Origin: Escherichia coli
Lineage (GTDB): Bacteria; Pseudomonadota; Gammaproteobacteria; Enterobacterales; Enterobacteriaceae
NCBI RefSeq assembly: GCF_003019035.1
Contig: NZ_CP027447.1
Reading direction: 5' to 3' (one strand)
Length of the DNA stretch: 64,000 nt
The translations under genes were made by a program, and so were the position numbers. This document shows, one piece after another, positions 33,806 through 45,056 of the stretch; position 1 is the first letter of the stretch; the number at the start of each line of letters is the position of its first letter. The notes beneath the pieces were generated by a model, which saw nothing but the letters and a program-made list of their open reading frames with translations, had not been told where the DNA came from and ran no database searches.

Positions 33806-34690
33806 ATGTCTCATTTAAAAGACCCGACCACGCAGTATTACACTGGTGAATATCCCAAACAGAAACAACCGACGCCAGGCATCCAGGCGAAGATGACACC
33901 GGTACCGGATTGCGGCGAGAAAACCTATGTTGGTAGCGGTCGCCTGAAAGATCGTAAGGCACTGGTGACAGGGGGCGATTCCGGAATCGGTCGCGCTGCC
34001 GCCATCGCTTACGCGCGTGAAGGGGCTGACGTGGCGATCAGTTATCTTCCCGTGGAAGAAGAAGACGCTCAGGATGTGAAAAAGATCATTGAAGAATGCG
34101 GACGCAAAGCCGTTCTGCTGCCAGGCGATTTAAGCGATGAGAAATTTGCCCGTTCGCTGGTTCACGAAGCGCATAAGGCCTTAGGCGGGCTGGATATTAT
34201 GGCGCTGGTCGCCGGGAAACAGGTTGCCATTCCTGATATTGCAGACCTCACCAGCGAACAGTTTCAAAAGACCTTTGCCATTAACGTTTTCGCGCTATTC
34301 TGGCTAACCCAGGAAGCGATCCCCCTGCTACCGAAAGGTGCAAGTATTATCACCACTTCGTCAATCCAGGCATACCAGCCAAGCCCGCATTTACTGGACT
34401 ATGCGGCTACGAAGGCGGCGATTCTGAACTACAGCCGAGGCCTGGCAAAACAGGTCGCGGAGAAAGGTATTCGGGTGAATATTGTCGCGCCAGGCCCGAT
34501 CTGGACAGCACTGCAAATTTCCGGCGGGCAAACGCAGGATAAGATCCCGCAGTTTGGTCAGCAAACGCCGATGAAACGTGCGGGGCAACCGGCGGAACTG
34601 GCCCCTGTATATGTTTATCTGGCAAGTCAGGAATCGAGCTACGTCACCGCAGAAGTGCACGGCGTGTGCGGCGGCGAGCATTTAGGTTAA
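33806..34690 (+). CDS. yghA: short-chain dehydrogenase/reductase
   Basis: 294-aa ORF; SDR motif [10 protein letters not shown]. Confidence 0.9.
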
Positions 34691-34694
34691 AAAA

Positions 34695-34731
34695 ATGCCC
34701 GGTTGTGAAAAGCAACCGGGCATCATTTTTA
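34695..34731. terminator. bidirectional rho-independent terminator between yghA and exbD
   Basis: atgcccggttg / caaccgggcat 11-bp stem flanked by A-run upstream and T-run downstream. Confidence 0.65.
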
Positions 34732-35154
34732 TTTCGCTTTGGCAGTTTCTTCGCCAACCAGACCTATCTTCAGGTAACCCGCCTGATGCAGCGTATCCAT
34801 TACCTTCATCAACGTCTCGTAATCGACGGTTTTGTCCGCTCGGAAGAAGATGGTGGTGTCTTTCTTGCCTTCGGTTAACGCATTCAACGCCGTAATCATT
34901 GTTTCATCGGTGACCGGATCGTTACCGATAAACATCGAGTTGTCTGCCTTCACCGACAGATAAACCGGTTTTTCCGGGCGCGGCTGCGGCGTGCTGGTAG
35001 AAGCAGGCAAGTTCACCTTCACATCTACCGTCGCTAACGGTGCCGCCACCATAAAGATAATCAGCAGAACCAACATCACGTCGATAAACGGCGTCACGTT
35101 GATATCATGCATTTCGCCGTTATCGTCGAGGTTTTCGTTAAGATGCATTGCCAT
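34729..35154 (-). CDS. exbD: TonB-system energising protein ExbD
   Basis: 141-aa ORF. Confidence 0.9.
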   Translation of the reverse strand: MAMHLNENLDDNGEMHDINVTPFIDVMLVLLIIFMVAAPLATVDVKVNLPASTSTPQPRPEKPVYLSVKADNSMFIGNDPVTDETMITALNALTEGKKDTTIFFRADKTVDYETLMKVMDTLHQAGYLKIGLVGEETAKAK

Positions 35155-35160
35155 CGGACA

Positions 35161-35895
35161 TTATCCTGCGCGTAATTTTTGTGCAACACGAACCGGATGC
35201 GCAGCGGCGCTGGCTTCCAGATCCAGGTCACGGCTTTGCAGCAACAATACCTGCGCTGCAACATCACCCAGCATCGCTTTAAAGCCGCCAATCTGGCGTG
35301 CAAATACGTTATAGATAACGACCGCCGGAATCGCTGCCACGAGGCCGATTGCCGTTGCTAACAGAGCTTCTGCGATACCCGGCGCAACGACTGCCAGGTT
35401 AGTGGTCTGCGTTTGCGCGATACCAATAAAGCTGTTCATGATGCCCCAGACCGTACCAAACAGACCAACGAACGGCGAAATCGCGCCGATGGTTGCCAGA
35501 TAGCCGTTACCGCGGCCCATTTGACGACCTACTGCGGCGACCCGACGCTCCAGACGGAAGCTGGTACGTTCTTTAATACCTTCGTTATCGTCGCTGCCTT
35601 CTGACAGTTCCAGCTCATTCTGCGCTTCATTGAGCAAATGCAGGCTTAAGCTTTTGCTACCAAAATCAGCGGCGATATCGTTGGCCTGGTTTAAGGAACG
35701 CGCTTCAGCCAGCAGTTGCTGCTCGCGCTTAAGGCGACGCTTCTGATTGAAGAACTCTACGCTCTTACTGAAGAAGATTGCCCAGGTGACTACGGAGGCC
35801 AAAATAAGCCCAATCATCACGCACTTAACGACAATATCGGCGTGCTGATACATACCCCAGACGGAAAGGTCCGTCTGCATTAAATTATTACCCAC
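35161..35895 (-). CDS. exbB: TonB-system proton channel ExbB
   Basis: 244-aa ORF, MotA/TolQ/ExbB family. Confidence 0.9.
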   Translation of the reverse strand: MGNNLMQTDLSVWGMYQHADIVVKCVMIGLILASVVTWAIFFSKSVEFFNQKRRLKREQQLLAEARSLNQANDIAADFGSKSLSLHLLNEAQNELELSEGSDDNEGIKERTSFRLERRVAAVGRQMGRGNGYLATIGAISPFVGLFGTVWGIMNSFIGIAQTQTTNLAVVAPGIAEALLATAIGLVAAIPAVVIYNVFARQIGGFKAMLGDVAAQVLLLQSRDLDLEASAAAHPVRVAQKLRAG

Positions 35896-36113
35896 TGTGT
35901 ATCTCCAGGACGCAAGTCACAAAATCTGCGCATAATAATATCAAAACGACGTCGAATTGATAGTCGTTCTCATTACTATTTGCATACTGCCGTACCTTTG
36001 CTTTCTTTTCCTTGCGTTTACGCAGTAAAAAAGTCACCAGCACGCCATTTGCGAAAATTTTCTGCTTTATGCCAATTCTTCAGGATGCGCCCGCGAATAT
36101 TCATGCTAGTTTA

Positions 36114-36129
36114 GACATCCAGACGTATA
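36114..36129 (+). promoter_or_regulatory. tandem MetJ boxes upstream of metC
   Basis: agacatcc agacgtat, two 8-bp repeats resembling met-box consensus AGACGTCT, about 18 bp upstream of the metC start. Confidence 0.55.
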
Positions 36130-36146
36130 AAAACAGGAATCCCGAC

Positions 36147-37334
36147 ATGGCGGACAAAAAGCTTGATACTCAACTGGTGAATGCAGGACGCAGCAAAAAA
36201 TACACTCTCGGCGCGGTAAATAGCGTGATTCAGCGCGCTTCTTCGCTGGTCTTTGACAGTGTGGCAGCCAAAAAGCACGCGACGCGCAATCGCGCCAATG
36301 GCGAGTTGTTCTATGGACGGCGCGGAACGTTAACCCATTTTTCCTTACAACAAGCGATGTGTGAACTGGAAGGTGGCGCAGGCTGCGTGCTGTTCCCCTG
36401 CGGGGCGGCGGCGGTTGCTAATTCTATTCTTGCTTTTGTCGAACAGGGCGATCATGTGTTGATGACCAACACCGCCTATGAACCGAGTCAGGATTTCTGT
36501 AGCAAAATCCTCAGCAAACTGGGCGTAACGACATCGTGGTTTGATCCGCTGATTGGCGCAGATATCGTTAAACATGTGCAGCCAAACACTAAAATCGTGT
36601 TTCTGGAATCCCCAGGCTCCATCACCATGGAAGTCCACGACGTTCCGGCGATTGTTGCCGCCGTGCGCAGTGTGGTGCCGGATGCCATCATTATGATCGA
36701 TAACACCTGGGCGGCCGGTGTGCTGTTTAAGGCGCTGGATTTTGGCATCGATGTTTCCATTCAGGCCGCTACCAAATATCTGGTTGGGCATTCAGATGCG
36801 ATGATTGGTACTGCCGTATGCAATGCCCGTTGCTGGGAGCAGCTGCGGGAGAATGCCTATCTGATGGGCCAGATGGTCGATGCCGATACCGCTTATATAA
36901 CCAGCCGTGGCCTGCGCACTTTGGGTGTTCGCCTGCGTCAACATCATGAAAGCAGTCTGAAAGTGGCTGAGTGGCTGGCAGAACATCCGCAAGTAGCGCG
37001 AGTTAACCACCCTGCTCTGCCTGGCAGTAAAGGCCACGAATTCTGGAAACGAGACTTTACAGGTAGCAGCGGGCTATTTTCCTTTGTGCTTAAGAAAAAA
37101 CTCAATGATGAAGAGCTGGCGAACTATCTGGATAACTTCAGTTTATTCAGCATGGCCTACTCGTGGGGCGGGTATGAATCGTTGATCCTGGCAAATCAAC
37201 CAGAACATATCGCCGCCATTCGTCCACAAGGCGAGATCGATTTTAGCGGGACCTTGATTCGCCTGCATATTGGTCTGGAAGATGTCGACGATCTGATTGC
37301 CGATCTGGACGCCGGTTTTGCGCGAATTGTATAA
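36147..37334 (+). CDS. metC: cystathionine beta-lyase
   Basis: 440-aa ORF trimmed to [15 protein letters not shown] start (395 aa); PLP fold. Confidence 0.9.
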
Positions 37335-42838: not shown

Positions 42839-45056
42839 AACGTCCAACCGCCGCTTTAGGGCGTTTCTTCGCACCAGCATTCTGCAGGCGAGATTGCGTA
42901 GACGACGCTTTTTTTGCCGTAGCAGGCGTCTGACGCTGGGTCGCCATCGGCGTATGTTTAGTCAACGCCGGACGGGTATTGCGGTTCTGGCGACGAGCCT
43001 CACGCATCTCTTCAATGGTTGGCGCAGGCACTAAGCAATCGCGACGGCTGCCAATCAGATGCTTTTTGCCCATCGCTTCCAGCGCCTGGCGGATTAACGG
43101 CCAGTTTGCCGGATCGTGGTAACGCAACAACGCTTTATGCAGACGACGCTGTTTGTCGCCCTTCGGCACGAAGACGTCTTCACTCTTATAACCAATCTTC
43201 GCCAGCGGGTTTTTGCCGGTGTAATACATGGTGGTCGAGTTAGCCAGCGGCGACGGATAGAAGTTCTGCACCTGGTCGAGGCGGAAACGATGCTTTTTCA
43301 GCCACAGCGCCAGATTCACCATATCTTCATCACGCGTACCCGGGTGCGCGGAGATGAAATACGGGATCAGATACTGTTCTTTACCTGCCTGTTTCGAGTA
43401 AGTATCGAACAGCTCTTTAAAGCGGTCATAGCTGCCCATGCCCGGCTTCATCATCTTCGATAACGGCCCTTCTTCGGTATGTTCCGGGGCAATCTTCAGA
43501 TAACCGCCAACGTGATGGGTCGCCAGCTCTTTGATATAGCGCGGATCTTCCACGGCGATGTCATAACGTACGCCGGAAGCGATCAGGATCTTTTTAATGC
43601 CTTTCAGATCACGAGCGCGGCGATAGAGGTTGATCGTCGGTTCGTGGTTAGTGTCCATGTGCGGACAAATATCCGGATAAACGCACGACAAACGACGGCA
43701 GGTTTGCTCAGCGCGTGGCGATTTGCAGCGCAACATATACATGTTGGCAGTTGGCCCACCGAGATCGGAAATTACGCCTGTAAAACCTGGAACGGTGTCG
43801 CGGATCGCTTCGATCTCATTAATGATCGAATCTTCCGAACGGCTCTGAATAATGCGCCCTTCGTGCTCGGTAATAGAACAGAAAGAGCAGCCGCCAAAGC
43901 AGCCACGCATAATGTTGACCGAGAAACGAATCATTTCGTAAGCCGGAATTCGGGCATTACCGTAAGCCGGATGCGGCACGCGCTTGTACGGCAGCGCAAA
44001 GACGCTATCCATCTCTTCGGTAGAAAGCGGAATAGCAGGCGGGTTGATCCATACATAGCGGTCGCCATGTTTTTGCATCAATGCGCGGGCGCAGCCTGGG
44101 TTAGTTTCGTGGTGCAGAATGCGCGAAGCATGGGCGTACAGCACTTTATCGCCCTTCACTTTCTCGAAAGAAGGCAGCAACACGTAGGTTTTTTCCCACG
44201 GTTTCGGGCGTGGTGGCTGCACGGTTACAGCTTTGGCTTCCTGCTTTTTCGGAGCTACCGGTTTGTTATCCGCGCACGGCAAATCTTCGCCATACGGATG
44301 CGGGATTGGGTCGATTTTCCCTGGGGTATCAAGACGGGTGGAATCCACACCGCTCCAGCCTGGCAACGCCTCTTTTACGATAATCGCGGTATTACGCACA
44401 TCGCGGATTTCACTAATCGGCTCGCCCATCGCCAGACGGTGCGCCACTTCCACCAGCGGACGCTCACCGTTACCAAACATCAGCATGTCGGCTTTCGAAT
44501 CCACCAACACGGAACGGCGCACGGTATCGGACCAGTAATCATAATGCGCGGTACGGCGCAGGCTGGCCTCAATACCGCCGAGGATCACCGGCACATCTTT
44601 CCACGCCTCTTTACAACGTTGGGTATAAACCAGTGTGGCGCGATCCGGACGCTTACCCGCGACATTATCTGGCGTGTAGGCATCGTCATGACGTAAACGG
44701 CGATCGGCGGTATAGCGGTTGATCATCGAGTCCATGTTGCCAGCAGTAACGCCGAAAAACAGATTCGGTTTACCCAGACGCATGAAATCGTCTTTACTGC
44801 TCCAGTCTGGCTGAGCGATGATCCCAACGCGAAAGCCCTGCGCTTCCAGCATACGACCGCAAATCGCCATCCCGAAGCTTGGGTGATCGACATACGCGTC
44901 GCCAGTAACCAAAATGATGTCGCAGCTATCCCAGCCAAGTTGATCCATCTCTTCACGTGACATCGGCAAAAACGGTGCCGGTCCAAAACAGGCGGCCCAG
45001 TACTGCGGCCAGGAGAACAGGTCGCGATCCGGTTGGATCAGGGAGATAGAGCTCAT
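42837..45056 (-). CDS. ygiQ: radical SAM-superfamily protein (UPF0313)
   Basis: 739-aa ORF; radical-SAM cysteine motif CFGGCSFC. Confidence 0.9.

Follow-up and report, generated by a model that had tools for sequence, protein, structure and literature searches.

Tandem met boxes upstream of metC in Escherichia coli: a known MetJ operator and the probable geometry of its promoter

The window under study, a 64-kb stretch of Escherichia coli DNA, contains the gene metC, encoding cystathionine beta-lyase, and upstream of it the divergently oriented gene exbB, followed by exbD. The two divergent genes are separated by an intergenic region of 251 bp, in which two adjacent 8-bp units similar to the consensus of the methionine repressor MetJ are located shortly before the metC start codon. 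The features of the region, including two candidates for the -10 element of the metC promoter, are as follows.

35895 to 35161, minus strand: exbB, divergent ORF upstream of metC, then exbD
36104..36112, plus strand: predicted extended -10 element TGcTAGTTT, TGCTAGTTT (hexamer TAGTTT at 36107-36112), proposed from conservation
36113..36120, plus strand: met box 1, AGACATCC, matching the consensus AGACGTCT at 6/8 positions; 8.96 bits by the published matrix
36121..36128, plus strand: met box 2, AGACGTAT, matching AGACGTCT at 7/8 positions; 9.96 bits
36126..36131, plus strand: alternative, less likely -10 candidate TATAAA, with a -35-like ATGCTA at 36103-36108 and a 17-bp spacer
36135..36138, plus strand: Shine-Dalgarno-like AGGA, 9-12 nt before the ATG; AGG is kept in the alignments
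36147..37334, plus strand: metC coding sequence, cystathionine beta-lyase, 395 aa, from the ORF and the RefSeq annotation of the matching region

The units AGACATCC and AGACGTAT stand in register and occupy positions 36113-36128. The initial annotation had reported both strings as tandem met boxes upstream of metC at 36114-36129; the strings are present and adjacent, but the coordinates were one base too high, and the interval 36114-36129 actually reads GACATCCAGACGTATA. Their closeness to the MetJ consensus, claimed in the same place, was borne out, with two mismatches to AGACGTCT in box 1 and one in box 2 (3/16 overall). The distance from the 3' end of the pair to the metC ATG (36147) is 18 bp.

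Scoring was based on the half-metbox information matrix and thresholds of Augustus and Spicer 2011 (PMC3228920, Table 3), according to which every box has to reach at least one quarter of the consensus score (3.15 bits) and the full site at least the consensus score itself, 12.58 bits. The pair scores 18.92 bits in total, and the scan with a MetJ weight matrix, which had been proposed as a check of the initial annotation, identified it as the only passing pair in the 64-kb window, with a runner-up of 10.85 bits. When at most 3 mismatches are allowed, the pair is also the sole match to the double consensus AGACGTCTAGACGTCT on either strand of the window, while shuffled sequences yielded a mean of 0.09 matches, with at least one match in 9 of 100 shuffles. 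A third met box was considered and rejected: the octamers flanking the pair score -1.73 and -8.70 bits, and the array accordingly comprises exactly two boxes. The junction between the boxes is C/A, the consensus being T/A; this junction and the presence of only two boxes characterize the metC site as a minimal operator. Met boxes are typically found within ~75 bp of the start codon (PMC3228920), and a pair 18 bp from the ATG of a methionine-biosynthesis gene fits this expected promoter location. The sequence-level attributes of a MetJ operator, namely, tandem in-register boxes, score, promoter location and conservation above that of the flanks, are thus all present at this site.

Good single boxes elsewhere in the window are isolated and lie within coding sequence. 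A perfect consensus box AGACGTCT (12.58 bits) at 43172-43179, inside a minus-strand ORF of 739 aa, is probably a chance occurrence, since the adjacent octamers are not box-like and the two-box requirement is unmet. In a tblastn search of the 64-kb window for metJ, with an approximate MetJ query, no match was better than E = 1; the absence of metJ from the window is expected, because metJ is b3938 and metC is b3008. In a published survey, metJ was found in 122/122 non-symbiotic Enterobacteriales (PMC3228920).

Comparison with the K-12 metC promoter, the other check proposed initially, showed that the exbB-metC intergenic region is identical to that of strain MG1655 at 251/251 positions, and the identity extends over 732 bp (35531-36262), including the whole intergenic region. 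Window positions correspond to positions of NC_000913.3 minus 3116089, which places the boxes at 3152202-3152217 of that genome. The operator of K-12 b3008 metC does not differ from that of the window in its 16-mer, its two boxes, its 18.92 bits or its 18-bp distance, whereas the metC coding sequence differs at 40/1188 nucleotides and in 4 amino acids (E40A, I98V, L144V and N321D; MG1655 to window). These differences indicate that the window belongs to an E. coli strain other than MG1655, and the divergence of the coding sequence beside an identical segment of 732 bp looks like ordinary allelic or recombinational mosaicism. Among complete E. coli genomes, 305 bp around the site are matched in 5422 of 5426 (in 5398 at 99% identity or more), where RefSeq annotates the ORF under this match as metC. 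Over the 57 bp from 36090 to 36146, which include the site, 5050 of the 5422 genomes are 100% identical, and in the three variant genomes inspected all changes fall outside the 16-mer, which is intact.

For the comparative survey, one genome per species was searched with a degenerate pattern for a 10-residue MetC motif, which gave 120 loci; a MetC orthologue was confirmed by tblastn in 119 of them, with 62-98% identity, and up to 300 bp upstream of the inferred start codon were scanned with the matrix for 116 loci. A passing pair located 13-22 bp before the ATG, with scores of 14.98-22.93 bits, was found in 32 loci, all of the Enterobacteriaceae type and belonging to the genera Escherichia, Citrobacter, Kluyvera, Kosakonia, Enterobacter, Lelliottia, Pluralibacter, Pseudescherichia, Phytobacter, Pseudocitrobacter, Cedecea, Siccibacter and Mangrovibacter. 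Where MetC is at least 78% identical, 32 of 34 loci carry a passing pair; the remaining two belong to a Pantoea and to a metagenome-assembled genome in which a recognisable remnant, GGACATCCAGCCGTAC, stays below the threshold at 11.36 bits. In addition to the 32 loci, the pair AGACATCCAGACGGAT with a score of 15.82 bits was found in Shimwellia pseudoproteus (L103, 4344-4359). The matrix scan of upstream regions revealed no passing pair in Erwinia, Pantoea, Tatumella, Pectobacterium, Dickeya, Yersinia and Rahnella, nor in 21 Pasteurellales, 8 Vibrionales and 8 Orbales.

In an alignment of 33 sequences (the 32 loci and the window) anchored on the boxes, the mean column conservation is 0.93 over the 16 box columns versus 0.48 and 0.53 in the distal flanks. 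Within box 1, columns 2-4 and 6-8 are invariant, and only A or G is found at positions 1 and 5; variation within the boxes is mostly confined to positions tolerated by the matrix. Two sequences adjoining the boxes are conserved as well, TCATGnTAGTTT directly upstream (0.79) and AAAA directly downstream (0.94).

The metC operator was reportedly first described, together with the metC sequence, by Belfaiza et al. in 1986. In the title of that paper, metB and metC are said to 'possess a similar regulatory region', and the same 1986 work is cited in PMC3228920 for the requirement of at least two adjacent boxes for functional repression. Table S1 of PMC3228920 gives agacatccagacgtat for b3008 metC, a site of 2 boxes that scores 18.92 bits and lies 18 bp from the start; the 16-mer, box number, score and distance computed for the window coincide with these values exactly, and metC is among the known operators on which the matrix was trained. 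Binding of MetJ to the shared metC/exbB intergenic fragment of E. coli was reported from gel shift assays, and the known E. coli operators, including that of metC, were assayed with lacZ fusions in the wild type and a metJ deletion strain (PMC3228920); repression ratios were below 0.25 for most of the known operators. The divergent gene exbB was not regulated (PMC3228920). A 2025 paper (PMC12188003) cites Kang 2011 for the derepression of metC when metJ is mutated in E. coli, and the role of S-adenosylmethionine (SAM) as the MetJ corepressor is restated in a 2026 paper (PMC12977542). The repression of metC by MetJ, which the initial annotation had invoked as known, is supported by published binding and reporter assays. 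At the level of orders, metboxes of metC were found in 81/119 Enterobacteriales, 0/16 Vibrionales and 0/19 Pasteurellales (PMC3228920), and metC is classed in a comparative study as a 'genome-specific' member of the regulon. In both comparative studies, MetJ control of metC comes out as patchy and not universal. The metC operator found here is already known, and no new MetJ biology is involved.

MetJ, a ribbon-helix-helix repressor with SAM as its corepressor, occupies each 8-bp box as one dimer, and dimers on neighbouring boxes bind cooperatively. The segment 36113-36128, a minimal array of two boxes, is very probably the operator through which MetJ acts on the E. coli metC promoter. With abundant methionine and SAM, two MetJ dimers would load cooperatively on these 16 bp; the array abuts or overlaps the core promoter, and bound MetJ would block the formation of a productive RNA polymerase complex, so that cystathionine beta-lyase synthesis would be shut down when methionine and SAM are plentiful. 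The boxes fall within the RNA polymerase footprint under either of the two promoter candidates considered below, and their position, as had been supposed, is therefore compatible with repression. No evidence against function as a MetJ operator was found. An objective matrix scan picked out this textbook regulatory site well above background, and its main use is that of a positive control, the role that it had been given at the outset; apart from the one-base slip, the annotation and coordinates of metC are coherent.

The promoter itself was located by sequence comparison, since a simple scan for sigma-70 -35/-10 consensus pairs between 35800 and 36300 returned no promoter pair. The motif TGnTAnnnT is present in 33/33 sequences of the Enterobacteriaceae type; in the last 60 nt before metC it was found in 50/75 Enterobacterales loci versus a chance value of 0.03, mostly in the form caTGnTAACGTaag, and its occurrence across Enterobacterales does not depend on the presence of met boxes. 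The motif lies further upstream of metC in Yersinia, Rahnella, Dickeya and Brenneria. The loci with the motif include the window and L003, L009, L012, L017, L019, L021-L023, L025, L029, L030, L032, L043, L050, L051, L063, L064, L066, L069, L072, L073, L080, L084, L088, L090, L094, L096, L098, L100, L110, L112, L114 and L117. The near-invariant positions, TG, T at -12, A at -11 and T at -7, are those important for an extended -10 element, and the motif would most simply be read as such. In the window, TGCTAGTTT has TG at -15/-14, T at -12, A at -11 and T at -7, a combination for which a good -35 is not required. Judged from these sequence comparisons, the metC promoter is probably the extended -10 element TGcTAGTTT, with a start near 36117-36121 and the boxes placed at about -6 to +10. 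This geometry is only modest new material, the MetJ operator itself being already known.

The same operator could serve another promoter, consisting of the -35 ATGCTA, a 17-bp spacer and the -10 TATAAA, with a start near 36138, although this arrangement is considered unlikely. In that case the boxes, at -25 to -10, would occupy the spacer and reach three bases into the -10, and repression by MetJ would be classical promoter occlusion. The spacing of 17 bp is ideal, TATAAA matches the consensus at 5/6 positions, and TATAAAA is kept in most Enterobacteriaceae, including the four A's outside box 2. The abstract of the 1986 metC paper reportedly also mentions a 'Pribnow box'. However, TATAAA is without T at -7, and a start near 36138 would leave a 9-nt leader and drop the conserved AGGA (36135-36138) from the mRNA. 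In Cedecea, Siccibacter, Enterobacter R1 and Mangrovibacter, TGnTA is separated from the boxes by an additional 5 to 6 bp and GGTTAAAC, CGTTTAAAC or a similar sequence takes the place of TATAAA, so that both the spacing and the hexamer of this arrangement fail there, while TGnTAnnnT persists. Erwiniaceae, which are without met boxes, keep TGnTAACGT at a similar distance from the ATG but have no good -10 downstream of it. A -35 role for the TGnTA block is at odds with the variability of the first T of TTGACA; the pattern of near-invariant positions T,G,n,T,A,n,n,n,T suits an extended -10 element and not a -35. The absence of T at -7 in TATAAA, the loss of AGGA that a start near 36138 would entail, the persistence of the motif in genera devoid of TATAAA and its order-wide occurrence all favour the extended -10 element TGcTAGTTT.

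The sequence AAAA after box 2 (36129-36132) is as highly conserved as the boxes and lies outside the scoring box. The extended -10 model leaves it unexplained, and it could speak for TATAAA as the -10 element; it may reflect a preference of MetJ for particular flanks, belong to the alternative -10 TATAAA, or form an A-rich element of the leader. ACGTAAG departs from the consensus yet is strictly conserved, which may point to a further constraint, and the unusually strict conservation of caTGnTAACGTaag might, less likely, reflect a site of a second regulator in addition to a -10. An A/T tract of moderate conservation, AAAATTTTCTGCTTTAT, is located at 36054-36070, ~50-65 bp upstream of the predicted metC start; it may, speculatively, be an UP-element-like sequence for a promoter lacking a -35. 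The consensus scan also returned four terminator-like hits on the minus strand inside the metC coding sequence.

Conservation of the 16-mer as a core promoter or leader, with an incidental resemblance to met boxes and no action of MetJ, is very improbable: the conserved block does overlap predicted promoter elements, but the pairs of the 32 orthologous loci are all above the MetJ matrix threshold, and Erwinia and Pantoea keep both the motif and the exbB-metC synteny with unrelated sequence at the position of the boxes, which shows that the promoter does not require the 16-mer. The gel shift and in vivo repression (PMC3228920), as well as the derepression mentioned in the passage of PMC12188003, also speak against it.

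Still less probable is control of the divergent exbB-exbD by this operator, instead of or besides metC. The 251-bp intergenic region is shared by both genes, and the fragment is bound by MetJ in vitro, but the boxes are 218 bp from the exbB start codon versus 18 bp from that of metC, and in the published reporter assay exbB was not regulated (PMC3228920). The exbB-proximal half of the intergenic region, moreover, has a conserved block of its own with a Fur-box-like sequence.

A functionless chance match to the consensus has a negligible probability, for although 0.53 passing pairs per window (~0.5 per 64 kb) were obtained on average in 500 dinucleotide-preserving shuffles, a pair of at least 18.92 bits was reached in only 3/500, and the metC pair, 18 bp upstream of a gene of methionine biosynthesis, is kept at this position in other genera and is supported by published experiments (PMC3228920).

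The operators of metA, metB/metJ, metF, metE/metR, metK and metNIQ are likewise represented by tandem in-register 8-bp boxes near the promoters of methionine genes, and their scores come from the same matrix. The metC operator has two boxes, the minimum for repression, while the other operators consulted in Table S1 have two to four (PMC3228920); among them, metB/metJ has 4 boxes with 31.2 bits and metE/metR has 3 boxes with 21.08 bits. For metF, five boxes are given in a review.

In Serratia, the metC operator also consists of two boxes before the orthologous gene and beside the same TGnTAACGT motif. A different pair, AAACGTCTGGATGGCT, was found in four of five Serratia loci (L019, L022, L063 and L072) 60-73 bp before the metC ATG, and this pair is already listed for Spro_4212 in Table S1 (Augustus and Spicer, PMC3228920). 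Unlike the E. coli pair, which is located downstream of the -10, the Serratia pair lies upstream of the motif and ends 14 nt before the -10 hexamer, i.e., over the -35 region. The different sequence and position suggest a separate origin of MetJ control in Serratia. Shimwellia pseudoproteus keeps an ancestral-type motif, GTGATAACGT, 13 nt upstream of its boxes; this spacing indicates that the distance from the promoter motif to the boxes differs among lineages.

Within Erwiniaceae (Erwinia, Pantoea and Tatumella), exbB and metC are divergent in several loci and stand about 220-300 bp apart; this shared arrangement was found in Erwinia and in several Pantoea and Tatumella (L021, L043, L051, L064, L069, L088 and others). 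Most Erwiniaceae loci share TGnTAnnnT, in the form TGnTAACGT, about 39-47 nt before the ATG, but their metC has no pair passing the matrix and unrelated sequence where Enterobacteriaceae have the boxes. The chances are about even that an order-wide extended -10 core promoter received MetJ control at least twice, at different places. If so, the boxes of Enterobacteriaceae would have been added across the start site, with the ancestral TAACGTAAG remodelled to TAGTTTAGAC, and those of Serratia over the -35, while Erwiniaceae, Yersinia and others would have kept the bare promoter. Together with the Serratia arrangement, metC would then represent a gene at the edge of the regulon gaining repressor sites at different positions on a conserved promoter.

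Several further features are present in the region. The exbB-proximal half of the intergenic region (35890-35990, especially about 35955-35985) is very strongly conserved across Enterobacteriaceae and contains AATTGATAGTCGTTCTCATTACTATTTGC, a candidate Fur box over the exbB promoter by its resemblance to the Fur consensus. Between 34000 and 38500, the only Rfam match at E <= 1 is a sub-threshold one to STnc310, a Salmonella sRNA, at 34680-34734 in the region of the yghA end and the exbD 3' part (22.3 bits versus a gathering score of 40, E = 0.75), which is probably noise unrelated to the met-box site. A conserved block in the middle of the intergenic region, TTTCCTTGCGTTTACGCAGTAAAAAAG (36007-36031), is not terminator-like on either strand and consists of the palindrome TGCGT-TT-ACGCA followed by a run of A.
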